A DNA stretch of 64,000 nt, from positions 114,328,001 through 114,392,000 of the forward strand of contig OX597819.1 of NCBI GenBank assembly GCA_951406725.2. The letters are read 5' to 3'. The stretch is from Octopus vulgaris. Lineage: Eukaryota. Made by a program: the position numbers and the translations under genes. The notes under the pieces are model-generated. The model was given only the letters and a program-made list of their open reading frames with translations, did no database searches and was not told the DNA's origin. This document shows, piece by piece, positions 2,259-27,831 of the stretch (the stretch's first letter is position 1; every line of letters starts with the position of its first letter).

Positions 2259-4472
2259 AGAGGGACCAGCTATCCGAGTTGATAGTTCCGTGGTAGCTAA
2301 GGCAATTAGAAGCATGAAGACAGGGAAAGCCCCAGGCCCATCAGGAATCACTGCAGAGATGCTCAAAATGTCTGGTAGTGTCGGCTATAGCCTAGTCAAC
2401 CGTATAGTTAATCAGGTGATACACAAAGGAGTCATACCCAATGACTGGTGTAGCAGCATAATAGTCAACTGCTACAAAGGTAAAGGTGATGCCCTAGATA
2501 CAAATAACTACAGAGGTATCAAGCTGTTGGATCAGGTGATGAAGGTTACGGAGAGGGTCATAGCCCAACTAATTAGAGAGAGAGTTAGTTTAGATGAGAT
2601 GCAGTTTGGGTTTGTGCCAGGGAAAAGTACCACTGATGCTATATTCCTGGTAAGGCAGCTGCAGGAGAAATACCTCGCCAAAGATAAGCCCCTGTACCTG
2701 GCTTTTGTTGACATGGAGAAAGCCTTCGACAGGGTCCCCCGATCCCTTATCTGGTGGTCAATGAGGAAACTAGGGATAGATGAATGGTTAGTGAGAGCTG
2801 TGCGGGCCATGTATAGGGACGCTGCTAGTAAGGTGAGGGTTGGCAACGAGTACAGTGAAGAATTCCGGGTAGAGGTAGGGGTCCACCAAGGCTCAGTCCT
2901 CAGCCCCTCCTATTTATCATAGTCCTCCAGGCAATAACGGAGGAATTCAAGACAGGATGCCCTTGGGAGCTCCTCTATGCTGATGACCTTGCTCTAATTG
3001 CTGAGTTGCTATCAGAACTGGAGGAGAAGTTTCAGGTGTGGAAACAAGGATTAGAATCGAAGGGCCTTAGAGTCAATCTAGCTAAAACCAAAGTCGTAAT
3101 CAGTAGGAAGGTAGACAAATCACAAACGCCTTCAGGTAGATGGCCCTGCTCGATCTGTAGAAAAGGTGTAGGTAGAAACTCTATAAGATGCACTAAGTGT
3201 AAGCTATGGATACATAAGAGGTGCAGCAATGTCAAAGGAAGGCTAACTAGGAAGATGGTTTTTGTATGTGGCAGATGCTCAGGAACAATAAACACTGAAA
3301 ATGCTCTGAGACCAACTTCCGTCACTTTCCAGGGAGAAAAACTAGAAATAGTTGATAGTTTCCGTTACCTAGGTGACCAAGTCAGCAGTGGGGGCGGGTG
3401 TGCTGAAAGTGTAACTGCTAGAGTAAGAATAGCTTGGGCAAAATTCAGAGAGCTCTTACCTCTGCTGGTGACAAAAGGCCTCTCGCACAGAGTAAAAGGC
3501 AGACTGTATGATGCGTGTGTATGAACAGCCATGCTACATGGCAGTGAAACATGGGCCATGACTGCTGAGGATATGCATAAGCTCGCAAGAAATGAAGCCA
3601 GTATGCTCCGATGGATGTGTAATGTCAGTACTCATACTCGGCAGAGTGTAAGTACCTTGAGAGAAAACTGGACCTAAGAAGCATCAGTTGTGGTGTGCAA
3701 GAGAGACGTTTGCGCTGGTATGGTCATGTGGCGAGAATGGATGAAGATAGTTGTGTGAAAAAGTGCCACACCCTAGCGGTTGAGGGAACCTGCGGAAGAG
3801 GCAGACCCAGGAAAACCTGGGACGAGGTGGTGAAGCACGACCTCCGAACTTTAGGTCTCACTGAGGAAATGACTAGAGACCAAGACCTCTGGAAGTGTGC
3901 TGTGCGCGAGAAGACCTGGCAGGACAAGTGAGTCCATAACCTGTGGCCTCCTACATGGGATGGAGCCAGCCTACGTATGCATACCTTCCCTTCTTGGGAC
4001 ACAAAACTCTACTTGTTAAGACCTGTTGAGGCAAGTGAGGATCAGAGTCGAAATCGATCAATGGAAATTGCAGATGTGTTACCAGTGCCGGTGGCATGTA
4101 AGAGAACCATCCGTTTGCGACTGTTGCCAGCGCCGCCCCGACTGGCCTCGTGCCGGTGGCACGTAAAAAGCGCCATCCGTTCGTGTCCGTTGCCAGCCTC
4201 ACCTGGCCCCCGTGCCGGTGGCACATAAAAAGCACCATCCGTTCGTGGCCGTTTGCCAGCTCTGTCTGGCACCTGTGCGGGTGGCACGTAAAAAGCACCC
4301 ACTACACTCACGGAGTGGTTGGCGTTAGGAAGGGCATCCAGCCGTAGAAACACTGCCAGATCTGACTGGGCCTGATGAAGCCTTCTGGCTTCACAGACCC
4401 CAGTTGAACCGTCCAACCCATGCTAGCATGGAAAACGGACGCCAAACGATGATGATGATGATGATGATGATG
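2259..4472 (+). mobile_element. RTE-clade LINE, 5'-truncated young copy (RT, PHD-like finger, repeat-containing 3' UTR, (GAT)n tail)
   Basis: RT motifs [65 protein letters not shown]. Two 1-nt deletions relative to the second copy (~2905, ~3668), TGA at 3522-3524, (gat)n tail at ~4448-4472. Confidence 0.95.
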
Positions 4473-10514: not shown

Positions 10515-10625
10515 GTTCCAATCGAGTATAATTTCCAGTTTGATGTTGATGATGAAGCGTTAGTGGTGGAGGCCAGCTTTGTTCCTCTTACACCTTCTAC
10601 CATGAAGAAGATTATTGAGGAAGGT
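10515..10625 (+). CDS. SELENON: SELENON exon (first visible): [37 protein letters not shown]
   Basis: Polypyrimidine tract + ccag acceptor, gtaagt donor. Resembles vertebrate SelN EETLTIEARFQPLLPETMTK. Confidence 0.85.
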
Positions 10626-13600
10626 GTAAGTATCTTTCAGTTTGTAGATGTCTGCATACAGGTATTGCATGAGGGGCTTGAATATCTGAATAATGCTTAC
10701 GTTTTTGAAACAATTATCTCACCTTTTAATTAGTTGTTCTTAGATACACTCTTTCTACATGTAAACCAGTTACACACACATGATACATAATATTCTTTTA
10801 CACATACATACATTCACTCTCTCTTTATCTCACATGCACCACACACAGATACACACATTCTGTTATTGGCGATGAGCTGGCAGAAACGTTACCACGCCGG
10901 GCGAAATGCTTAGTGGTATTTCGTCTGCTGCTACGTTCTGAGTTCGAATTCCGCCGAGGTCGACTTTACCTTTCCTCCTTTCGGGGTCGATTAAATAAGT
11001 ACCAGTTACGCACTGGGGTTGATAATCGACTTAATCCGTTTGTCTGTCCTTGGTTGTCCCCTCTATGTTTAGCCCCTTGTGGGTAATAAAGAAATAGGTA
11101 TTTTGTCTGCTGCTATGTTCTGAGTTCAAATTCCGCTGAGGTCGACTTTACCTTTCCTCCTTTCGGGGTCGATTAAATAAGTACCAGTTACGCACTGGGG
11201 TTGATAATCGACTTAATCCGTTTGTCTGTCCTTGGTTGTCCCCTCTATGTTTAGCCCCTTGTGGGTAATAAAGAAATAGGTATTTTGTCTGCTGCTATGT
11301 TCTGAGTTCAAATTCTGCCGAGGTCGACTTTGCCCTTCATCCTTTTGGAGTCAATTAAATAAGTACCAGTTACGCACTAGGGTCGATATAATCGACTTAA
11401 TCCATTTGTCTGTCCTTGTTTGTCCTCTCTGTGTTTAGCCCCTTGTGGGTAGTAAAGAAATAGGTGTCAGTCATTGGAAGTTGCCTATGCTAATTCTAAT
11501 TCTGAGGTGATCTAACAAAACCAAAACAAATTACCATTCTAAGGCAAAGATTAGATTTGCTCTCCATTGCATTGCTTACATTCTATTTTTAATCAGTTAA
11601 CATTTCAGGATTATCTTCCCCACCTTTCTTGATCATTAAGCTATGATCATTTCTTCTCCCCATACATGGAATAATTATTGATTAAAATATCTTGACTCAT
11701 TGTAACATGAATCTTGTCAAAAGAACCAGTTAAGTATTGTAGTTGATATTGTCATCTATCCCCTCTCACCAAAATGAATAGGGCTGATTACTCATTAAAT
11801 GATACCTTTGATTATGGAAACTTCAATTAAGTGCTTCTTTTTATTCAAATTAACATGTGGGATAAATAAATAATTGTAAGTAGTGATTCGAAAGATAATT
11901 ACAATTTTGCCTATTGATTTTTCAAGTTCTAAGAATCAATTAAATGCTATAAACCACTTATGTTAAAGATATATGGTTTTGTGTCAATATCGGTTTCAAA
12001 TTTAGGCACAAGGCCAGCAGGATTGGAGGTGGAGCTGAGTCAATTAAATCGACCCCAGTGTTCAACTTGTACTTACTTTACCAACCCTGAAAAGACAACT
12101 GGCAAATTTGACCCTGGGGGAATTTGAACTCAGAATATTAGGACAGCTGAAATGCTGCTAAGTGTTTTGCCCAGCATGCTAACAATTCTGCCAGCTTGCT
12201 GCCTTGTTTTGTGTCAATATTTGAAAGTATGATTATTATTTCCCTTTTTTTTTTTTTTTAAATTTAGGAACAGATTATGGAAACTCAGAAGTGTTTTTCT
12301 GGACTCAAAGAATGGAAAAAACCAGCGAAGAATCTCATGATATATTCTGCTAAACACTTCAAACCTTTTCTGCCAACCAACCCAGATTTCATGAACTCTG
12401 TGGGTAAAGTCTACACACTGTGGGAGGGCAGTAGATTCCAGTACATCACTGGACAGATGCCAAGCAGCAACAGATATTTTCCATCTCTATTCAAAGACAA
12501 CCAAGCTATTTTTCACAGTCTCCTTTCTATGTTTCACCCACGCCCATTTCTCCTGTCGCGTTTTGAACCACAAGGAGCTGTGGCTTGCGTTAGAGCATAC
12601 AATTCTGAGTTTGTGGACATAGCTTTTAGGTAAGAGATAACATGTAACATCTCATGTTCTTTGAAATATATTTAAATTGCTATTTTGGCAGAAGACCACA
12701 TTTAACTGATTGACTCAGTCCTATGCTGTAAATGAAGGCATGACTAGGTGGTTGAGAAATTTGTTTGCGCACATATCATCTATGAGAGCCTTGGTGTAAT
12801 CATGCATGTGAGTGAAAGTTTCCCTATGAAAGCTGTGGAAGTCATCAGAGCTGTTGCTGGTCTTGGGTGGTAGATTTAATCCATTGCCGGATTTAACACT
12901 ACACTTCATATGTGGTGTCTTTAACAGGGACCGCCCTATCGCTAGGATCTGGGCCATGTTTCTGGTCTAAGGATAACTTCATCTCTTCCTTCCACCTGTC
13001 TCAGAAAAGGGTTATGGGAGTAGTCCTTATTTCTCTAACTTAAGCCATTAAAGAATAACAAATGAGTTGTAATCATTTAAAATTTCTTGAATGAAGTTGG
13101 TTTAGAAAGAAAAAAATTGAATAAGGTTAGATATCAAGCTTGGTGCCCTGTCACTTATGCTGGATCACCTCACTCATTACCATCACCATCATCATCATCA
13201 TCGTTATCACTCAAATAATTATTATAGGAGTCAGCAGAGAAACTTTTATAACAGCAACAATTTTTCTAAAGAGATTGCATAAGCTAATTACAGAAATTCT
13301 TTGTACTTGCTCAACCTGTTCAAGGGAGCCTCTTCATTGTTGCCTGGCTTTCCAGAAACAGTAGTCAAATCTCTTTTAAATCACACTCTATTGTTTTAAA
13401 CAATAATTTGATGGATAATATAATCAGGAGTACACTCTTGCTTGGAAATAAAAAGCAGGGTTGGTCATGGTTGGAATACCTTCGATTACAGATCTGCTCA
13501 GTCATAGTCAGCTTGGGGCTAAACAGAAACCTGTTCAAGTGCAAGCCAACAAGTGTGCTTCTTTGTGATAAGATTATTCTGTCAAATGCAATGCTTATTT

Positions 13601-16600
13601 ATTCAATTGTTACCCCATAACGTACCCCCAAAATAAGTACTGGGCTTCATTTGTTCAATTAAACCCTTCAAGGTAGTGCCCCAGTATGGCCACTGTCCAG
13701 TGGCTGAAACAAGTAAAAGGTAGAAGATAGAACTCATTAGGAAAACCTGTATTCATTGCATAACCTCCAAATTTATGCTGGAGAAAAGAGGTTGTGATGT
13801 TTATGCCTTTATCATGAAGGATGAGAGTTACAAGAAGTAAATGTTACAAGTAAAAGATTGCTTAGAAATCACAGGTTCAGTCCAACGTTATTTTACTGAT
13901 ATATGTTAATACATAAAGCATGATGGGCCACGATCGTGGCTGTCAGGCACAGGTCAACAGGCCACAATCATGGCTCGGATAGATGCATTTAACTTATGGG
14001 TGTTTGTTGGGGTCTAATGTCACTCGAAGGCTCTGATACCCCCCCCCCCCCTCCGCCCCAGAATGCAAGAGGACTAATTGTTCAACTTTTCAGATGATGT
14101 AGATGATGACTTTTCAGATGATGTAGAACTTGCTACCATTATATACTAAGAAGATATTTTAACCATTTTTTGTTTTTTATGTGTGCATGGTAGTTTCATT
14201 GTCATAAAATGTGCTCAGGAGTCCATGCTATGTAAGTGCAAATCCCAGTGCTTTATGGGTTAAACATAAAATGTGTCTTTCTTATCATCAGGCATAAACC
14301 ACACAGATTTAAGTAATAATTTTTGTAGTCATAGTTGTACATGATCTGTTTGATAATCTGAAATAAGTCATGATTTGTCTCCTAATCTATGTTAATCTAT
14401 TCAGATTAATCAGCCACTCAGATTTTCATTGAGATTTTATTTCTCAATATCTATCACTACTAAAGTGACGAACTGACAGAATCATTAATTAACACTCTGG
14501 GCCAAATTCTTAGTGGCATTTCGTCCATCTGCATGTTCTGAGTTCAAATCCCACCAAGGCATGCCTGTCACTAAGGAGGTGGGGGGAGGGGGGCCACTAG
14601 ACTGCACTGCTCCCTCACTATTGGTGCACCCTCAGATTTAGAAAATACAATTTACAAAAATCTTCCTGCAATACAAATTTGTGCCTACCCAGAATATTCT
14701 GAAGCACCCCCAGGTACCAAAGTCTAGCAACACGCCTGCGCTGATGTCAATTTTACCTTTCATCCTTTTGGTGGGGGTCGATAAAATAAGTGCCAGCTGA
14801 GCACTTGGGTCGATGTAATTGACTTACTCCCTTTCTTGCAATTGCTGGCCTTGTGCCAAAATTTGAAATTAATATCTACACTCACTGAGTGGTTGGCGTT
14901 AGGAAGGGCATTCAGCTGTAGAAACACTGCCAGATCAGACTGGAGCCTGGTGCAGCCTTCTGGCTTCCCAGATCCCCGGTCGAACTGTCCAACCCATGCT
15001 AGCATGAAGAACGGACGTTAAATAATGATGATGATGATGATAGAAGGAGCGAGCTAGCAGAATTGTTACTGCTCTAGACAAAATGCTTAGCAGCATTTCT
15101 TCCAGCTTTGCATTCTGAGTTGAAACTCCACCGAGCGGTTGATACAATAAGTACCAATCAAGCACTGGGGTTGATGAAACTAACTGACCCCTTCCTATGG
15201 AATTGCTGGCCATGTGCCAAAATTTGAAACCAATAGCTATCATTATTATTTTTCTTTGTTTTGTTATTATCAGAATTTTAGAACAGTGCTTTTTAAACTA
15301 TGGGTCACGACCCAATTTGGGGGTCGTGAAGTGAAATGCTGGTGTCACGAAGATTAAATTCAAACACTTGAATTTCAGTTTATATGTTACTAGCAGCTAA
15401 GCCCAGTTTCACCCGGTCTGTTTGGATGGACATGTATGTGTGCATGTGTGCATGCTTGTGCTTGTGTATGTGAGAGAGAAAGAGGGTGAGAAAGAGAGAT
15501 AGAGTGAGTGAAGGTATGTGTCATGATGATTGACGTCTTTTAAGGTACACACACATACATAGAAAATGTGAGGTCATCATGTAAAATTTTTACAATAGTT
15601 GATTGATGGAAAAGATTATATTAAATTTTTGAAATGCAAATATGTGAATGAAAATTAAGTTCAGACCTCTACATGGTAGCTAGACATGGTAGAAATAGCT
15701 GCCAAATCTCCCTCAAAACACCCTACTGTCTTAATCCGACAATTCTGCCTATTATGTAGTTTTAATGAGAAACTGTAACTAAAGATTAAGATTATTAACC
15801 TCACAAAGAGGTGAAAGAAGAGAGACAGCATAGCGAAATTTTTAGCTGACTGTCATCCTGTACTCCCCTTGCTGCTAGCGAAATGGTATATGCTGGCTGT
15901 ATGAGCAACTGGCTGTTTTAATGGTGGAACAAACAGGGGAATTCCATTAGTAAAAGTTTTAATCGATTTTCTCTGTAACTATGGGGGCTAGGAAAAAAAT
16001 ACAAACCGCATTCCAATCTATGCACCCATCTCCACATGTGTGCCATTTTTCATGCAAATCCACCCAGCCGTTTTACTGTGAACCTGAAGACAAGAAAGAA
16101 TATAACGATTGCCCATGTTCAATTTATATCATAGATTTCACAAATGCATATTTAATACCTAGGGTTGTGAAAAATCTTGCGATGAAAAATGGGGTCATGA
16201 ATGAAAAAGTTTAAGAAATGCTGTTTTAGAACATGTGACAAAGTGCCTTAGTATTTAGTTATAGCCCTTTAGAACATCTTATAGTATTTAGTTAGAGCCT
16301 TTCACATACTGAATTCAAATTTAGCCGAGGCTGATTTTGCATTTCATTCTTTCAGGGTTATTGAAATAAGTATCACTCATGTACTTGGGTTGATATTATA
16401 AACTACCTTTTCTCACCAAAACTCTCTCAGTATTTCCTGTCTACTCTAGAACCATCAACAGGAGTGTCTTGGATTTAACATCAAGACACCTGCCCATCAA
16501 GTCTGCTTGGATCAGAGCTTAGATGGACTGTCTGATACTCAGACATTCCCATGACAATTACATGTTTTCAGAGTATTTATAATCACTGTGATTATGCAAA

Positions 16601-19600
16601 TCATAATCAAGATTGTATAAAAAGTGACGGTAAATGCCATGTACACATGGATATTGAAGTAACAGTATATGGGAACAAGATGTCATGTTTCCCATCATTA
16701 CTAGTCATTATGGCAATACCTAGCGCTAATCTTCTCATGAGATTGTTCTGTGCTAGGTATGGGTGTGTATACGAAACAACTGACTAAGACAGAGAAATAT
16801 ATATACAATTAGATTCTTATAAAGAGCTGAAACTTTACATTTGCAACTTAAAGTTAGTTAGTTAGTTAATTTTTTGGCTCAAAAAGCAAAAAGCAAGGCC
16901 ATGTAGGGGGACATGGAGTTATGTACAGCGTAGTGTTCATGTAAAGAGTTCAGGCCACTTGTGGTCAAGGAAGACTTTGAACCGAGCGGTCGTCGGCATC
17001 TTCACCATCTCGTCTGGCAGCTTATTCCACAGATCTGCAACCTGGATGGAGAAAGCCCCTCTCCTTCGATTGAGATGAAATTGTTGCAGATAGAGCTTTT
17101 CGGAATGACCCCGCAGCCGACGCTCTGGAGCAGGAGTGAAGAACAGCTCTTTTGAGAGGTTACACTTTCCGCTTATGATGTTGTGAGCAAGAATGAGATC
17201 ACCACGACGTCGTCGTTTTTCTAGAGAATAAAGGTCGAGCGTCTTCAGCCTTTCTTCATAAGACAAATTTCCACCTTTCACCTTTTAGTTCCCCAGACGA
17301 CATACATGATCATGATGATGATCATCATCGTTTACGTCTGTTTTCCATGTTAGCATGGGTTGGACGGTTTGACCGGGGTCTGGGAAGCCAGGAGGCTGCA
17401 CCAGGTGCCAGTCTAATCAAGCAGTGTTTCTACAGCTGGATGCTCTTCCTAACACCAACCACTCCGTGGCAGCTGCAGGAGAAATACCTAGCCAAAGATA
17501 AGCCCCTGTACCTGGCTTTTGTTGACATGGAGAAAGCCTTCAACAGGGTCCCTCGATTCCTTATCTGGTGGTCAATGAGGAAACTAGGGATAGATGAATG
17601 GTTAGTGAGAGCTGTGCGAGCCATGTATAGGGACGCTGCTAGTAAGGTAAGGGTTGGCAACGAGTACAGTGAAGAATTCCGGGTAGAGGTAGGGGTCCAT
17701 CAAGGCTCAGTCCTCAGCCCCCTCCTATTTATCATAGTCCTCCAGGCAATAACGGAGGAATTCAAGACAGGATGCCCTTGGGAGTTCCTCTATGCTGATG
17801 ACCTTGCTCTAATTGCTGAGTCGCTATCAGAACTGGAGGAGAAGTTTCAGGTGTGGAAACAAGGATTAGAATCGAAGGGCCTTAGAGTCAATCTAGCTAA
17901 AACCAAAGTCGTAATCAGTAGGAAGGTAGACAAATCACAAACGCCTTCAGGTAGATGGCCCTGCTCGATCTGTAGAAAAGGTGTAGGTAGAAACTCTATA
18001 AGATGCACCAAGTGTAAGCTATGGATACATAAGAGGTGCAGCAATGTCAAAGGAAGGCTAACTAGGAAGATGATTTTTGTATGTGGCAGATGCTCAGGAA
18101 CAATAAACACTGAAAATGCTCTGAGACCAACTTCCGTCACTTTCCAGGGAGAAAAACTAGAAATAGTTGATAGTTTCCGTTACCTAGGTGACCAAGTCAG
18201 CAGTGGGGGCGGGTGTGCTGAAAGTGTAACTGCTAGAGTAAGAATAGCTTGGGCAAAATTCAGAGAGCTCTTACCTCTGCTGGTGACAAAAGGCCTCTCG
18301 CACAGAGTAAAAGGCAGACTGTATGATGCGTGTGTATGAACAGCCATGCTACATGGCAGTGAAACATGGGCCATGACTGCTGAGGATATGCATAAGCTCG
18401 CAAGAAATGAAGCCAGTATGCTCCGATGGATGTGTAATGTCAGTACTCATACTCGGCAGAGTGTAAGTACCTTGAGAGAAAAGCTGGACCTAAGAAGCAT
18501 CAGTTGTGGTGTGCAAGAGAGACGTTTGCGCTGGTATGGTCATGTGGCGAGAATGGATGAAGATAGTTGTGTGAAAAAGTGCCACACCCTAGCGGTTGAG
18601 GGAACCTGCGGAAGAGGCAGACCCAGGAAAACCTGGGACGAGGTGGTGAAGCACGACCTCCGAACTTTAGGTCTCACTGAGGAAATGACTAGAGACCAAG
18701 ACCTCTGGAAGTGTGCTGTGCGCGAGAAGACCTGGCAGGACAAGTGAGTCCATAACCTGTGGCCTCCTACATGGGATGGAGCCAGCCTACGTATGCATAC
18801 CTTCCCTTCTTGGGACACAAAACTCTACTTGTGAAGACCTGTTGAGGCAAGTGAGGATCAGAGTCGAAATCGATCAATGGAAATTGCAGATGTGTTACCA
18901 GTGCCGGTGGCATGTAAGAGAACCATCCGTTTGCGACTGTTGCCAGCGCCGCCCCGACTGGCCTCGTGCCGGTGGCACGTAAAAAGCACCATCCGTTCGT
19001 GTCCGTTGCCAGCCTCACCTGGCCCCCGTGCCGGTGGCACATAAAAAGCACCATCCGTTCATGGCCGTTTGCCTGCTCTGTCTGGCACGTAAAAAGCACC
19101 CACTACACTCACAGAGTGGTTGGCGTTAGGAAGGGCATCCAGCCGTAGAAACACTGCCAGATCTGACTGGGCCTGATGAAGCCTTCTGGCTTCACAGACC
19201 CCAGTTGAACCGTCCAACCCATGCTAGCATGGAAAACGGACGCTAAACGATGATGATGATGATGATGATGAATGTATAATATTGTATATATCAAAAACCT
19301 CAGTATTCAGTTTCATGTTTACATATTTAAAATATTCTTTCTTCTCATTTCCATCTTTAATTCATACAGAATACATGCAGAATTCCAGCTGAATGAACGA
19401 CCAAACCTTCCATTTTGGTTCACTCCAGCATATTTCTTTGGCAATCTCATCATCAACAAAAATGCTACATCTCTCCTGAAGTTCAATCTTGCTGTACCAA
19501 CTCACAATAAACTCAATGTTGGTTAGTAGAAGTAATTGAAAATATATTGTATTGCTGTGTTGTGGTTTATGTGCCTGGTGTGCATATGTCTGTCTGTATG

Positions 19601-22600
19601 TGTATCTGTGTGTTTATGATGCTATTTGAAGACTGGTGTGTGAATAAACTACATTTATACAACCCTAATAATGTATAACCTGTTGATGGGGTGTTGCTCA
19701 TTTGAATTAGTGGTACCCAGACTGAAGGGGAAATTGGTTTCTTGGCTGAAAGTTCAAATAGTTTCTTTTCCTGTCACCAGTACTGCACTGTGCCCATAGC
19801 CAAAACACCTATGCTATCTCCCCACACCTAACTGTCATTAGCAACTGTAAGCTGAGACAGTCTATCAGTATATGCAAGGATAAGATGCTCCTAGTACTGG
19901 GTTCTTCAAATTCTTCTATGAATATAGCTTGAAGAAAGATAGAATGTTTCAAGACTGTATGAATAAGGAGTTTGCTTTTTGACCTTGTGGTTTTGGATTC
20001 AGTCCCACAGCATGGAAAGTGTCTTATACTATGGTGCTGGGTCAATAAAACCCTGTGAGTGGGTTTGGTAAATGGAAACTGAAAGAAACCTGTTGCATAT
20101 GTGTGTGTGTATGTGTGTGTGTGTGTTCTTGTCTTGACATCATAGAATACTTATGAGTTACTATCATTCAAGCAGAGTCCTTCATTTCCAATCTTCCAAG
20201 AACACATGTGAGGCCTTGGTGAAGTATTATCTTGCCTGGACACAAGCCAAAGTTGGTGACAGGAAGGGCATCTAGCCATAGGAAAAATCTGACTCCTGCA
20301 AGCATGGAAAATGTGGATGTTAAAACAATGGAGATGACAACGATGGTATATTCAAGCCAGCATCTTATAATGCAATAGGATTTAGAAAGTACTCATGCAT
20401 ACACACACATAAAAATGCTCATGCATGCCTATACATACTTGCACGCACACAAACACACCATGTATACATAGACAAATGTACACATACTCTCCTTCACAAA
20501 CTTATATACCCATACATGCAAAACATCCCACAATACAAACGTTTCATGTTTTACAACTCTGAATGTCTTTCAGACATGGAATGGCTGACAAATGTGGCTG
20601 ATGAAGTCAATATGGAAGTCAACATTGGATTTCTACCCAAAATGGAACTGAAGTCCCTCAGCAGATCTACTGTTCACGCTAACCAGCTTGATTTTGAAGG
20701 TATTGATGAGGCGGTCACCAACCAAGAAATATCATCTATTTCATGGACGGAAGAAATCTCCATGGAAGAAGCAATGAAAAGTATGGAAGTCAAAATGTTT
20801 CCCTTTAAGGAAGTAGGTTACTTTAGTAGAATATTTTATTTCTTTTGTTGGACTTTTTGCATTGTGTTTGTTGGAACTGTTGCTAAGCAACAGACCATGT
20901 GTATGTTTATATACATTGTGTGTGCATATTTATGTCATGTAGTGTGAGTGTTTTAAGATATACCCTACATAATGCAGTTGTGCAGATTATAAGGAAGGGG
21001 CCTTTTACATGCTTGCTTGACCAATGAACCAATAAGAACCTCTGTACAGTCACTCGACATAATAGAAATAGCTGTCAAATATTCTTTAAATTATACTCTA
21101 TCATCTTAAAATATAAGATATCAAAGTCTATCTAAATGTGGAATTCTGTCTGTCTGGGACACCTGTATCTCAGACTACATTTGCTCCGTATAGAAATATC
21201 ATACCTTTTTGGAATCAGGATGATCCCTGGATTGAAAATCTGCCCTTCATTTGGTTCTTGAACATCCAGTATTGGGATTTCATTTTAAAACATTTGGATT
21301 GCTATTTCTAGCAGGTAAAGCTTGGTTGATTCATGCTTTCTTGGTTGGCATTTGTCAGATGATGCCAGAGATGAAGGAGTGTGATAAATGACATTAATTT
21401 TGTTAATTTTATGCCGAGATGAAAACTTTTGGACAAATTGGCCAACTTGGGACTGGAACAATAGAATGATTGCAATCCAGAATGAATTTTCATCTGTCCT
21501 TAACTTCTGATCACACCACTGGGGCATATAATCATTATAGATGTATTATAGTCATGTTCTTTAGCTCTCTTTAGTTTTGGGCCTCAGACCCAATTAGCCC
21601 TCTGCAGGAGTTAGACTAAAAGTCTGCATGGAGTGCAGCTTTTAAGCTTGTATTAGATAAATGAAACAAGATAGAATGGTTACAGTTGGAATACATTTGA
21701 TTTTTGTCAACCAAAATTTGGCTAAAAAAACAATATAAACTTGGGCTAAAAACGACATAGATTATAATACAATGTGTGTATTATAAAAAGTGATGTATGA
21801 TTGTGCACAATATAAAGGATGTTTCTGTGTTAATACACATATTCTGAGTTGTGTGTGCATATGTTTGTACATGTAGGTGAGCATATAAAAAATTCTTTAT
21901 TATTATTATTATTATTATTTAGCCCCTATTTTAATCCTGCTTATGCAAACCTATGACAAAAAGTGTTCCAGCAATGGCCATCCAATCTATTTAAAAGTAT
22001 GTTGTCTCATGTTCTTTTTTTATTTAAAATAGTATGATGTGATCTGAAGGAAATTAGACTGCTATTTGTAGCAAGTTGAGCAACCATGTAGAGGCTTCTC
22101 CCTGTCATGTGGAAACTGTGCATGATGAAGCTAATCTACATGGTTCAATACTTGAAGAGTGTATGTAGTGTGTAGAGTCAAGTGTGTATGATTTTGTGTG
22201 TGTAGTGTGTGTGTGTGTATATAGTGTTTTTTGTATGTATATTGTGTGTATTGTACCTGTATGTTGAATTTCTACTAAACGCGGAATTATATTTTCAGGT
22301 CCCTTATTACAACTTTACTTCAGCCTTTAAAAAGGCCCAGGCTGTACAGAAATTAGTTCACTCCATCATATTATGGGGTGTACTAGATGATCAGAGTTGC
22401 TGAGGTTCCGGGCGAACCCTGCGAGAGACTGCTCTCCAGAGTTCGCCCGTTATGTCTTTCCTTAAGGAACACTTTATCAGTACTTCCTGCCTTGTTGTTG
22501 ATCTTGAGGTAAGTTGTTGCCAATTTCTGTTCCTTCTCTGCTTGTCGAAAGCTTGTTTTAGGTTAATTTTGGGCAGAAGTTGCAGCTAGTAGTAAAAAAA

Positions 22601-25600
22601 AAATCACCATACTTCTATGTTTACCTTTGTAGCAGGAATAATGATGATGATATATATGAAGGGCATCCTGCTGTAGAAACTCTGCCAGATCAGATTGGAG
22701 TCTGGTGCAGCCATCTGGTTCACCAGACCTCAGTCAAATCGTCCAACCCATGCTAGCATGGAAAGCGGATGTTAAACAATGATGATATATATATATGCAT
22801 GATTGAATCCAACCCATGCTAGCATGGAAAGCGGATAAATGATGATGATGATGATATATATATACACACATGATATTTATCACATGAACTATGATGAAAA
22901 AATGTTAGATATGGTATATAGATTTTCTTGTGCAGGGGTTTCTTGAGATATAATTTATTGTATGGGTTGTGCAAGGGTAAAAGGGTTGAGAAACACTGGT
23001 ATAGAGTGTACTGGGTGCTTTTTATCATGACACCAGCACTAGAGAAGTTGCCTTGTCCTCTGAAAGACTTGAGAGTTCATCCCTTCAGCATTTAAACTGA
23101 CTATATCAGGCTCATATATTCTTCCTGTTTTATGTTCAAACTGTCTGGATCCAGCCTCTCACACCTATCCTACAATGTCATTCTAAAAATAATCATAGAA
23201 ATCTCAAAGCTATAAGATAAGACAATTCAAAACAATGTGAATAAATAAGCATTACATTTGACAGAGTAATTTGAATGTTAAAGGGTTAAGGCAATGTGAC
23301 TAAAAGGGGAAATGGAAGAGAGAGTATGAAAGGAGAAACAAAGTGATAAGGATGAGAGGTTGATAGGAAAAGGAGACAGTAATAGGCAGTTACTTGTTAG
23401 TAAAGAGACTGAGTAGAAATACAAGTTTGGACAGTGGATTAAACGCATTATTCAGACCATAGAGCTTTGCTCTACTCCAGTGTTTCTCAAGGAAATGTGG
23501 ATGGGTAGATGCTGTGAGGATTGAAAAGTTGGGCAGACAAATTGCCATGTTTAATAAATTTTAGATGGATTTCAACTTTTTAAATTAGCCACTACCATTG
23601 TGAAGAAAAGAGAATTATATGGATACAAGTTTAATTTTTGTCTTCTCGTTAACAAAAATGGAAGAGGGACAGAAATTTCACTAATAATTTGGATGGGGCC
23701 TGGTTTTTGTTAGATTGAGACCACTGCTCTACACAGGTTATCCACCTTATGACGATGATGATTAATCAAAATTATTTTGTTCTTATTTGTTGACTTCAGG
23801 ATCTGAAGAAAGGCAAAGGTGAGGCTGCTAAAGTTGCAACTATGTTCCTTGAGAATTATAAATTCCCTGTCATGATGATGGTATCTCTCTCCAATGGCAC
23901 TATCTTGAATAAAGTAAATGCCAACGATCTCCTTGATGCTCCATCTGACTTCTGGAATACAGGGTATGGCATTTTAAAACTTTTTTATCAACTGTTTGTA
24001 CAATAAATCACTTACATTTCTGTTATTTTCTTACTGATTTCATTCATTAGACAGGGCATTGTCTTCATGGATTTTGTAAGTATTCGTTCGTTCGTTTAAG
24101 TATATCAACTTCAGTAGTTAAATTTTGTCTGTTATTTATCAATCTCTAACTTCAGAGGTATAAAAGGACACATCATAAATACAGACACTGTCCCCTACCA
24201 CATAAATACTGTATAGTTCTACTTACCAAATTCCATACACAAGGTATTGGCTGACCCAAGGCTTTCATGAGGTGCTATACAGTGAGATTGCACCCAAGGT
24301 CATATGGTTATGAAACAGACTTCCTACCTACACAACTATGGGTGTCTATTTTTTTTTTTTTGAATAGGTCTCAGGACAGACTCTCCTCTTCACCCAATCC
24401 CTGTTTCTTCAAGTTCCACTTAGAGAAAAAAGAAAGGTTGAAGAAAGTGATACTGCCCTACAATAAAGTTGTAGAACTAGGAGTGGAATTGATGACTATG
24501 GCCTGAATAAATGAGCCTACTTACAGTATACATCTATAAATTGAAGAACATAGCAGGGAAAGAGTAGTTTTGGAAATCAATTGTATGCATAACACCTTGG
24601 GCAACTATATTCAACTGTAGTCTTGTGTTTGTCAGTATTACCATCCATCCGTTTTTACTGTCCACTATCCCTAGGAGGGTTGAGCCATCAGGCACTTCCT
24701 CCACAGAGTCCTATCAGAAGCAACCATTATTAAAATTTCTTACTGGATTCCCACACACAACCGAGACTATGGATATTATCCAGCTAATGGTACTTCTTAA
24801 ATACGGAGGTCCTGACGCACGCATCTATGTAATGATATAAAGGAAAGGTAACCCTAACCCCTCTGTATTTAAGTAGTGCCCAACTATCTTGGTCGTGGTC
24901 TACACCATGTGGTGCCCAACTATCTTGGTCGTGGTCTACACCATGTGGTGCCCAACTATCTTGGTCATGGTCTACACCATGTGGTGCCCAACTATCTTGG
25001 TCATGGTCTACACCATGTGGTGCCCAACTATCTTGGTTGTGGTCTACACCATGTGGTGCCCAACTATCTTGGTCATGGTCTACACCATGTGGTGCCCAAC
25101 TATCTTGGTCATGGTCTACACCATGTGGTGCCCAACTATCTTGGTCATGGTCTACACCATGTGGTGCCCAACTATCTTGGTCATGGTCTCCTGGTTTCAA
25201 GAATTTATTTTGTGATTCTTTTCTGCAGCATTCTAACCATGTGTCTGTAGTGCCAAAGGTGTGACCTCTCAATGTGGAGCAGTAGCAACTCAATCTAGTG
25301 AAACACCCTTATCTCCAGGCTACACTCTCTGTTGGGTAACGCTTATGAGTAGAATTTGGTAGGTAGGAATAGGAACTCAGAATTTATATATATATATGCC
25401 GGTGGTACGTAAAAAACACCAACTGATCGTGGCCGTTGCCAACCTCCCCTGGCACCTGTGCCGGTGGCATGTAAAAAGCACCCACTGCACTCATGGAGTG
25501 GTTGGCGTTAGGAAGGGCATCCAGCTGTAGAAACACTGCCAGATCAGACTGGAGCCTGGTGCAGCCTCTTGGCTTCCCAGACCCCGGTCGAACCGCCCAA

Positions 25601-26143
25601 CCCATGCCAGCATGGAAAATGGATGTTAAACGATGATGATATGCAGATATATCTTTCACTGATGAATGTCAGCAAAAGATAAAATGTCAGAGAGAAAGCG
25701 AACCAAAAAAAAAATCCTTACAAATGAAGCCCTTAAGTTATTTATTCTGTATTGAGTGGCAGACACCCTTTTGTCATTCTTACAATCAGAAACAGTAAAC
25801 TCTTGTATTCAGTGATGCCATTCTTCAATTATAAGATAAATATGCAATGGGGGTCTTATTGACTAACAATAAAAATGCCTTTGTGATGCAGTTTTAGTGA
25901 AGATAGGGATTTTAGGCTGCAGTTAGATATTCCAAGAAAAGTTTTTTTTATACTACTATCTGATGTGACCTTGGATATCAGAACTGCTATTTGTTGCTTA
26001 AAATGTTTAGCTCAAAACTTCTTTGATGTACTCAACCAAGTTCTTGACAAGAGAAGGACAAAATCTTTCAAATAATAATGTGTGCGAGCACATGTAGTAA
26101 ATTCTATGAGGAAATTGTAATTCAGTCATTATACATCCATCTT

Positions 26144-26184
<41 letters not shown>

Positions 26185-26808
26185 CAGGAGTGGCTGTGTG
26201 ATAAGTAGCTTGCTAACCAACCACATGGTTCCGGGTTCAGTCCGACTGCGTGGCATCTTGGGCAAGTGTCTTCTGCTATAGCCCCGGGCCGACCAATGCC
26301 TTGTGAGTGGATTTGGTAGACGGAAACTGAAAGAAGCCCATCGTATATATGTATGTGTATGTGTGTCTGTGTTTGTCCCCCTAGCATTGCCTGACAACCG
26401 ATGCTGGTGTGTTTACGTCCCCGTCACTTAGCGGTTCGGCGAAAGAGGCCGATTGAATAAGTACTGGGCTTACAAAGAATAAGTCCCGGGGTCGATTTGC
26501 TCAACTAAAGGCGGTGCTCCAGCATGGCCACAGTCAAATGACTGAAACATGTAAAGAGTATACATATATATATATATATATATGCGTGTGTATGTATTTA
26601 AATTCATTAACTGTTTGTGATTCCTTTACAATATATAGTAAAATGTTTAACTATTAGGAAATTATATGGAAAAATAATTATTAAGTAATTTATCTTTCTT
26701 TCTTTCTTTATCTCCAGGTTTCAAAACCCAACCACCGTGTCTTACTTAAATTTCTTGAAGACAGGTTTTCAAAATAGTTTAAAGTACAAAACGAGACCAA
26801 ACATATAA
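10515..26808 (+). CDS. SELENON: Selenoprotein N orthologue, spliced and 5'-partial: join(10515..10625,12268..12629,19370..19521,20574..20812,22299..22508,23800..23963,26718..26808); TGA 22401-22403 = Sec
   Basis: All introns are GT-AG with consistent phases (0,2,1,0,0,2). Summed length is 1329 nt = 443 codons. The translation matches SelN motifs in order: [118 protein letters not shown]. The N-terminal TM/EF-hand exons were not found in the window. Confidence 0.95.
10868..11465 (+). mobile_element. tRNA-derived SINE (Meta/MESC-like core) with its body tandemly triplicated
   Basis: Head ggcgatgagctggcagaa.., B box gagttcgaattcc, core gtcgactttacctttc.tcctttcggggtcga..aagtaccag. A 182-bp unit restarts at ~10916, ~11098 and ~11280. 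Confidence 0.85.
12268..12629 (+). CDS. SELENON: SELENON exon: [16 protein letters not shown]...[38 protein letters not shown](R)
   Basis: Poly-T/ttag acceptor, gtaaga donor. Contains the conserved MFHPRPF and PQGAVAC motifs; overlaps ORF 12277..12633. Confidence 0.95.
15390..16135 (-). mobile_element. Non-autonomous Helitron nested in a hAT-like MITE (~15284-16224)
   Basis: Minus strand begins TC (tctatgatataaatt) and ends with hairpin + CTAG at an AT site. The flanks cagtgctttttaaact.. / ..agtttaagaaatgctg form hAT-like TIRs. Confidence 0.6.
16852..17281 (-). mobile_element. CR1-clade LINE 3' end
   Basis: [47 protein letters not shown], with a (taac)n tail at ~16852-16868. Confidence 0.88.
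17468..19270 (+). mobile_element. RTE-clade LINE, second near-identical 5'-truncated copy, in a SELENON intron
   Basis: Nearly base-for-base match to 2654-4472. ORFs 17347..18339 and 18346..18747 are in one frame, separated by a single TGA. (gat)n tail. Confidence 0.95.
19370..19521 (+). CDS. SELENON: SELENON exon: [50 protein letters not shown]
   Basis: cag acceptor, gttagt donor, phase 2 to 1. Contains the conserved IHAEFQL and PFWF motifs. Confidence 0.95.
20574..20812 (+). CDS. SELENON: SELENON exon: [26 protein letters not shown]...[16 protein letters not shown]
   Basis: tttcag acceptor, gtaggt donor. Contains the conserved DMEWL, NMEV.IG and M.PFK motifs. Confidence 0.93.
22299..22508 (+). 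CDS. SELENON: SELENON selenocysteine exon: [70 protein letters not shown]
   Basis: ttttcag acceptor, gtaagt donor, 210 nt. SelN similarity continues in frame past the TGA at 22401-22403 (SCUG motif). Confidence 0.97.
22409..22449 (+). promoter_or_regulatory. Selenocysteine redefinition element (SRE) stem-loop in the SELENON CDS
   Basis: cgggcgaac (22409-17) pairs perfectly with gttcgcccg (22441-49). Inside that are ctg/cag, gagag/ctctc and an actg loop: 17 bp, starting 5 nt after the Sec TGA. Position and shape match the vertebrate SELENON SRE. Confidence 0.85.
23800..23963 (+). CDS. SELENON: SELENON exon: [54 protein letters not shown](G)
   Basis: ttcag acceptor, gtatgg donor. Resembles vertebrate [26 protein letters not shown]. 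Confidence 0.92.
24876..25189. repeat. 36-bp minisatellite, ~8.7 near-identical copies, in the last SELENON intron
   Basis: Unit gtgcccaactatcttggtcatggtctacaccatgtg, head-to-tail with no spacers. Variation is confined to tca/tcg/ttg. Confidence 0.97.
26184..26560 (+). mobile_element. CORE-type tRNA-derived SINE (second family; well-preserved minus copy at ~45172-45580)
   Basis: tRNA-like head (gtggctgtgtg.taag..ggttcagtcc), CORE-like cttgggcaagtgtctt, internal (TG/TA) tract, and tail ccagcatggcc.cagtcaaatgactgaaac..gtaaagag. Confidence 0.8.
26718..26808 (+). CDS. SELENON: SELENON last coding exon: [29 protein letters not shown]
   Basis: Long pyrimidine tract + ccag acceptor, phase 2, TAA at 26806-26808. 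Resembles FEDPSTATYMQFLKEGL. Confidence 0.92.
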
Positions 26809-27000
26809 CCTGTAAAATCGGGAATTGCAGATTAACAAATTTATGTCCTGTTTTTTTATTATTATTTTAATTATATGAAATATATATTTTTATATAGAAT
26901 TCGGCTAAGAACTAAAGCAAGTTCTGTGATATGACTTGTTAAGATTTCTTCCAAAACCTGCATATACACACACACACACACACACATGTATTTAGTTATG

Positions 27001-27074
27001 CACACTCAGTTGATACCTGAATGATGGCACCAATGTAAAACCTTGTGGTGAGTTTGTGCCTGATGCTGAAATGT
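27001..27074 (+). promoter_or_regulatory. SECIS element, type II, in the SELENON 3' UTR
   Basis: A-TGAT (27021-25); helix II ggcaccaatgt/gagtttgtgcc; AAA at 27037 (11 nt after the quartet); apical mini-stem acc-ttgt-ggt; 3' TGAT (27061-64); lower helix tcagt/gctga. About 210 nt after the stop codon. Confidence 0.88.
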
Positions 27075-27831
27075 GGGTACATACTGGATGTGCACAACTG
27101 AACTGAGAAACAAAAACAAACTCTTAGCCATATATTTAGGTACACCTTCAATAGAAGATGGAGGTTAATTTTTCTACTGTTGCGAAATTTTATATTCAAC
27201 AAGTTAAAATAAATTTAATAAAGATCTGTTTATATGTATATATTCTGCAGCATTGGTTGCAATATCTGTCTCACACATACTTACCTGTTATACTCTTCCA
27301 GTCTTATTTTCTCTACATAAACAACTAGTCACACTTAGACATACAAATATAAATATACATATAGTTATTCTTTCCCCTCAGACACACACTATATTATTCA
27401 TTCCAATCCTCTCTCAAAAAATAATTTGATTTTGTAAAATGCCAGGCTACTGGTAAGAAGTTCATATCCTATCATCAGTTCTGCAGTGTCTCTTTTGATA
27501 AGGGAGAAAAAGAAACCTGAATTTTCTCTCACCTAGTCTGCTTCCTTGCTATGTTGATATTTTGGCCCAGATTAGCAATGATAAAAAGCATTCAAACTTT
27601 GACTGTTTCATCTTTTATTCACATAGTGTATCTAAGAATTAATTAGCTAATGTGTCCCATGTTTGCTTTAAAAATATTAGGGTATTATTTTAGGGAAGTT
27701 TGGTTGCTATTTCTAGCTGTATATTATTTCTTGAATCACTATTATGATATGATCAAGGGTACCTTTGTAACCCTGTTGACAGGTACATTACTTACACATA
27801 CATAAAAGCTGGTAACTTGACATTTAAAATA

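Follow-up and report, generated by a model that had tools for sequence, protein, structure and literature searches.

Does an in-frame TGA that interrupts a selenoprotein N-like (SelN) frame of Octopus vulgaris end the protein, or is it decoded as selenocysteine (Sec)? The question is raised by a stretch of 64,000 nucleotides (hereafter the window), AT-rich and repeat-rich animal DNA in which an earlier note had described a complete Sec recoding system. The stretch very probably contains the last seven coding exons of octopus SELENON, with the UGA read as Sec, aided by two predicted RNA hairpins. Its standing as an octopus SELENON orthologue with the expected cis signals, an ordinary member of a known family, is well supported, and conservation suggests that the product is a functional selenoprotein.

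Seven exons between 10515 and 26808, all flanked by AG and GT, join into a single frame of 443 codons in which the only internal stop is a TGA at codon 323. The open frame at 22206-22403 runs through ...LDDQSC to this TGA, after which GSGRTLRET continues in the same frame, and the joined frame closes at a TAA. The features of the locus are as follows.

10515-10625, plus strand: first coding exon in the window, with AG/GT flanks and a match to the database protein P0002; residues 179-215 of the annotated protein
12268-12629, plus strand: second coding exon, 100% identical to P0002
19370-19521, plus strand: coding exon with the motif RIHAEFQL
20574-20812, plus strand: coding exon with the motif DMEWL
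22299-22508, plus strand: exon bearing the TGA and the start of a predicted thioredoxin-like domain, the domain being drawn from the predicted fold of a homologue
22401-22403, plus strand: in-frame TGA in an SC-U-G motif, likely a selenocysteine codon
22410-22448, plus strand: SRE-type hairpin after a 6-nt spacer from the TGA, recognised by folding, recoding and covariation
23800-23963, plus strand: coding exon after the TGA (YKFPVMMMV...NGT...NAND)
26718-26808, plus strand: last coding exon, with the stop TAA at 26806-26808 and a C-terminus identical to CAI9724857.1
27013-27072, plus strand: type-2 SECIS-like element, with AUGA at 27021-27024, AA from 27037 and the 3' UGAU at 27061-27064
27208-27222, plus strand: two AATAAA hexamers, likely used as poly(A) signals past the SECIS-like element

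The earlier note had the frame halting at LDDQSC and SelN similarity resuming as far as the TAA at 26808; these coordinates are right, and the 119 residues encoded beyond the TGA match homologues. Its count of seven exons is sound in so far as all are AG/GT-flanked and share one frame, but the gene must have additional exons upstream of the window, because nothing in the 64 kb matches residues 1-178 of the annotated protein, and the locus is only partly contained here. The same missing residues, together with the finding of no tRNA genes (and hence no tRNA-Sec gene) in the window, tell against the description of the system as complete. The TGA stands 105 nt before the next exon junction, and two introns follow it. 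Stop codons upstream of exon junctions make a transcript an NMD target, and thus the TGA, if it acted as a stop, would expose this mRNA to NMD.

The introns also harbour two near-identical broken copies of a non-LTR retrotransposon (17197-18747 and approximately 2280-3930, both on the plus strand), the second of which has a 380-aa open stretch with a reverse transcriptase (Pfam RVT_1, E 2e-21) and a PHD-like finger. Just past the first exon, at 10915-11465, a 182-nt unit that is SINE-like by eye is repeated three times in tandem, and the last intron contains 8.7 tandem copies of a 36-nt unit (24876-25189, 98% matches) that give rise to spurious long ORFs. Between 27500 and 64000 no convincing gene was found, the 13 frames of at least 110 codons there being repeat-derived or of low complexity by eye.

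Decoding of the TGA as Sec is favoured in the first place because there is one internal stop in 443 codons and conservation extends over the 119 residues beyond it. These residues share 42-43% identity with four fish SelN proteins (E approximately 1e-28), 48% with Sepia and 75% with Argonauta, the cephalopod and bivalve models together spanning 48-75%. It is favoured in the second place because TGA occupies the codon in all 31 metagenome loci of homologues, which were picked by the exact pattern QSC-TGN-GSGRTLR, permitting TGN at this codon; TGY or TGG occurs in none. Ten of these loci (nine distinct) are contigs that have no introns and resemble transcripts; the TGA is preceded by 418-466 open codons and followed by 118-134, the latter in agreement with the 119 in octopus. 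The nine full-length loci all fall outside the vertebrate clade in a quick tree. Among the 67 representatives recovered in a search with the TGA exon, 34 stop exactly at the preceding cysteine; the others have tryptophan (n=18), cysteine (n=5), a gap (n=4) or another residue (n=5) at the Sec position, or start after it (n=1). The tryptophans likely result from translation of the TGA under a code in which TGA encodes Trp.

Several relatives depart from this pattern. P0087, P0094, P0097 and P0111 are divergent homologues with CC at the motif and without the animal N-terminal region; P0087, P0097 and P0111 lack the N-terminal anchor and the EF-hand region and show 23-31% identity. P0066 (SCFGPG) and P0069 (SFRGSA) are SelN-like, with F or R at or adjoining the Sec position, and are possibly Sec-less paralogues or pseudogenes. 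Three of the metagenome loci (L013, L018 and L027) encode C-termini ending in KDEL, KDEL and KEEL, a tail that is not present in the octopus protein and that suggests an ER-retention signal added in one lineage. A scan of prokaryotic genomes with the octopus TGA exon, a single animal sequence and thus a query uninformative about bacterial homologues, gave only one locus (L032) from 451 candidates, which was rejected as a chance match with upstream stops and no flanking similarity.

The hairpin that the earlier note saw after the TGA is borne out by folding. The 60-nt stretch containing it has a folding energy of -33.1 kcal/mol (z -5.55), equalled by 0 of 200 dinucleotide shuffles, and no other of the 427 CDS windows reaches the stability of the hairpin (-29.4; the best window not overlapping it, -14.3). 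The spacer of the human SRE is 6 nt. Of the 31 homologue loci, 28 form the same hairpin, with z of -3.0 or lower against synonymous recodings and with compensatory changes. One further locus (L010, positions 472-525) has a weak hairpin only (z -1.9); it belongs to a contig of 72% GC with a divergent SelN-like frame in which the TGA is kept, and is possibly non-animal. Two others (L009 and L022, minus strand, with the TGA at 845 and 1429) have a 52-nt GT-AG intron that cuts the hairpin. When this intron is spliced at the acceptor supported by homology the hairpin is restored (-23.0, with 3-4 of 1000 recodings as good), which is not the case with the other in-frame acceptor that was tried.

Covariation was assessed over 23 distinct rows, consisting of the window and 22 loci, with the weak L010 kept and both the duplicates (L008, L014, L015, L016, L019, L020 and L028) and the intron-split L009 and L022 dropped. 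Across these rows 93.1% of cells pair, compared with 29-53% in slid-register controls, and two-sided changes occur in 5 of 12 pairs, figures to be read in the knowledge that the QSC-TGN-GSGRTLR selection fixes part of the 5' arm and that the pair-shuffle control ignores relatedness. The same stem is recovered by RNAalifold.

Sec insertion could be real and the hairpin still be a by-product of amino-acid conservation instead of a selected RNA signal, since much of the stem falls on invariant codons (GRTLRE; SSP) that were selected by the pattern search. However, synonymous recodings hardly ever reach the same stability (0 of 20000 with uniform codon usage, 0 of 20000 with the usage of the gene and 7 of 20000 when GC3-heavy), so the peptide does not explain the hairpin. 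Moreover, the third-position column 15 and its partner appear as AU, GU, GC, CG and UG, certain stem changes also alter the amino acid, and the intron-split copies regain the hairpin once spliced, all of which makes the by-product explanation very improbable. Because the hairpin is found in 28 of the 31 loci, covaries and re-forms in the two intron-split copies, we consider it highly likely, if a degree less so than Sec decoding itself, that the SELENON SRE is not restricted to vertebrates and is an animal-wide structure of the mRNA, with selection acting on the spliced transcript. The more ambitious combination, in which this conserved structure is in addition a relic of a bacterial-type SECIS from SelN-like bacterial genes, is doubtful; it is raised because of the general proposal that SREs derive from bacterial SECIS elements (PMC4561486).

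Eukaryotic SECIS elements are described as having a 5' AUGA and a 3' GA core, with an unpaired AA at a fixed distance and a helix 2 (PMC2761289). The octopus element is located 212 nt past the stop on the same strand and approximately 135 nt before the two AATAAA hexamers. It reads AUGA-12 nt-AA-23 nt-GA, with a UGAU/UGAU quartet, 8 nested pairs and an apical mini-stem (-10.8 kcal/mol). It is the one structured match among 40 pattern matches on both strands of the window (128 kb), and 0 of 2000 shuffled 3' regions yield such a match, although the structural thresholds of the scan were chosen after the element had been seen. Looser settings give 7 matches on both strands of the window and a SECIS-like element on 3 of the 10 transcript-like homologue contigs. 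The Rfam model SECIS_1 aligns to the element over its whole length, scoring 21.4 bits where the cut-off is 35 (E 0.21 over 4227 families), and at the curated cut-off Rfam has no matches in the whole window. Two homologue elements detected by SECIS_1 also score below the cut-off (28.7 and 25 bits), and SECIS_1 therefore appears insensitive for invertebrate elements. Folded without constraints, a 76-nt piece adopts a non-SECIS structure (z -1.17, 24 of 200 shuffles as good), and a 96-nt piece adopts the SECIS fold (z -2.43, 2 of 200 shuffles as good). This SECIS is probably genuine, although the SRE is better supported, and it would share one mRNA with the TGA. The earlier note's term 'canonical SECIS' thus applies to the consensus motifs and their spacing, but sits poorly with the Rfam score and the 76-nt fold.

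This score leaves room for near-cognate tRNA readthrough under the hairpin alone, with the SECIS-like element inactive, and the human SRE without a SECIS has been reported to yield Sec-independent readthrough (PMC4561486). Nevertheless, the AUGA, AA and GA motifs stand at consensus spacing (PMC2761289), and the element lies in the expected place as the only structured match in the window, so that readthrough of this kind is hardly credible.

Comparison with the databases identifies the gene and accounts for its present annotation. The part of the model before the TGA is identical to the last 322 residues of the O. vulgaris protein CAI9724856.1, a 500-aa 'selenoprotein N-like isoform X2' that ends in DDQSC and to which the exon at 12268-12629 is 100% identical. 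Over its final 103 residues the model equals CAI9724857.1, a 'hypothetical predicted protein' whose accession number follows directly. Exon junctions of both records agree with the model on either side of the TGA, and neither record includes the Sec codon or the 16 residues that follow. Joined across this gap, the two records give a predicted protein of 620 aa. Judged by these identities, the GenBank annotation splits one gene at the TGA, as the earlier note had anticipated in expecting automated annotation to truncate or mis-splice it there. A search with the exon at 12268-12629 gives 34 homologues, the named ones mostly SelN or SEPN1, and 22 of the 34 end at DDQSC, as does UniRef100_A0A0L8HM81 of O. 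bimaculoides; database entries are usually truncated at this codon. That selenoproteins are often mis-annotated is well established (PMC3473315, PMC13134290). Outside the octopuses, homologues share 38-55% identity with the model (fish and marsupial, 43-47%). A quick tree, in which the joins of long branches are unsure, groups the model with O. bimaculoides and Sepia (99% SH-aLRT), apart from bivalves and vertebrates; this grouping and the identity with the tail of CAI9724856.1 uphold the earlier note's attribution to a probable cephalopod.

Predicted folds bear on what a stop at this codon would mean for the protein. The model of a homologue (P0060, pLDDT 80.5) shows a thioredoxin fold at residues 343-503 (3f9u, Z 12.9, rmsd 3.0, 124 aligned), which begins approximately 40 residues before the Sec site and spans it; hence a stop at the TGA would cut the domain, as predicted on this homologue and not on the octopus protein. 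The octopus C-terminal piece on its own folds poorly (pLDDT 53), and the single-sequence fold of P0046 is of low confidence. Foldseek returned nothing at E <= 0.001, the top of its list being thioredoxin-fold proteins. Towards the N-terminus, within the 178 residues encoded outside the window, P0002 has a hydrophobic segment at 104-122 (hydropathy 2.16) and an EF-hand loop, DFDEDGYLSLNE, at 155 (Pfam EF-hand E 8.5e-4, under the curated cut-off). The family profile search gave EF-hands only among the matches listed, neither Pfam nor NCBIfam yielded a model for the SelN core, and no solved relative of P0002 was found by sequence.

Taken at face value, the two GenBank records describe a true stop, with a 500-aa protein followed by an independent 103-aa gene, and the 22 of 34 database homologues that likewise terminate at DDQSC would fit such an arrangement. 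However, in-frame conservation extends over the 16 codons that separate the TGA from the methionine of CAI9724857.1, the frame is continuous in the transcript-like homologues and each piece supplies half of a single predicted thioredoxin domain, whereas a gene finder that takes TGA as a stop would be expected to yield just such truncated homologues; a true stop thus retains almost no probability. The same negligible chance attaches to removal of the TGA by splicing to give a Sec-less protein, as in database models from Sepia (P0037), Mytilus (P0032), Sinanodonta (P0006) and Megalops (P0014) that skip the motif, since the skipped stretches differ among these models, the best-conserved residues are lost with them and intronless homologue contigs keep both the TGA and the hairpin.

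Under Sec decoding, and by analogy with the scheme described for vertebrates, SBP2 would bind the kink-turn/core of the SECIS and recruit EFSec with Sec-tRNA, while the SRE would make termination at the UGA less favourable. Translation would then yield a protein anchored in the ER membrane by its N-terminal part, with an EF-hand as well as a luminal thioredoxin-like domain bearing SCUG, comparable to the vertebrate ER calcium sensor and oxidoreductase (PMC12839072, PMC8704476, PMC3541580, PMC12936836, PMC2761289). By the same analogy, octopus SELENON likely couples ER calcium to redox control.

The octopus gene shares with human and vertebrate SELENON (SEPN1) the N-terminal hydrophobic segment, the EF-hand (seen in P0002), the SCUG motif, the hairpin after the UGA and, as predicted features, the 3' UTR SECIS and the C-terminal thioredoxin-like domain, as far as the vertebrate protein is described in PMC12839072. 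It differs in its predicted length (620 aa, including a long basic N-terminus, as against 590 aa in human) and in its SECIS, which is of type 2 with an apical mini-stem, whereas PMC2761289 assigns that of human SelN to type 1. SelN has been reported as one copy each in the sponge Amphimedon, Nematostella, the mollusc Lottia, Capitella and amphioxus (Branchiostoma) (PMC3473315), and a C-terminal model from Lottia (P0117), of the same family, shares 49% identity with the octopus part after the UGA. That invertebrate set includes no cephalopod, and the SRE goes unmentioned in the main-text parts of PMC3473315 on SelN.

Characterisation of the SRE of human SELENON is reportedly due to Howard et al. 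in 2005 and 2007, and the 2005 study may already cover invertebrates. The human element is thus the characterised one, whereas those of octopus and of homologues outside the vertebrate clade are known by folding and covariation. For the human element, and for that one only, stimulation of Sec insertion has been described (PMC8704476), and an EvoFold analysis placed a SELENON stem-loop fewer than 10 bases after the UGA in an eight-way human-based alignment (PMC1440920). Our literature search, which covered mostly titles and the openings of abstracts, found neither a cephalopod SelN nor an invertebrate SELENON SRE. Wide conservation of the SRE outside vertebrates is the only potentially new part of these results.

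For the octopus itself, the gene model is corrected, in that the annotated 500-aa protein stops short of the likely catalytic residue and misses most of the predicted thioredoxin domain, and its 'hypothetical' neighbour CAI9724857.1 is the tail of octopus SELENON. For the family as a whole, the natural compensatory variants of the SRE from distant animals provide ready-made pairs for testing the importance of individual base pairs in an element in which mutations occur in human SELENON-related myopathy; they are also relevant to the question of a descent of SREs from bacterial SECIS elements.
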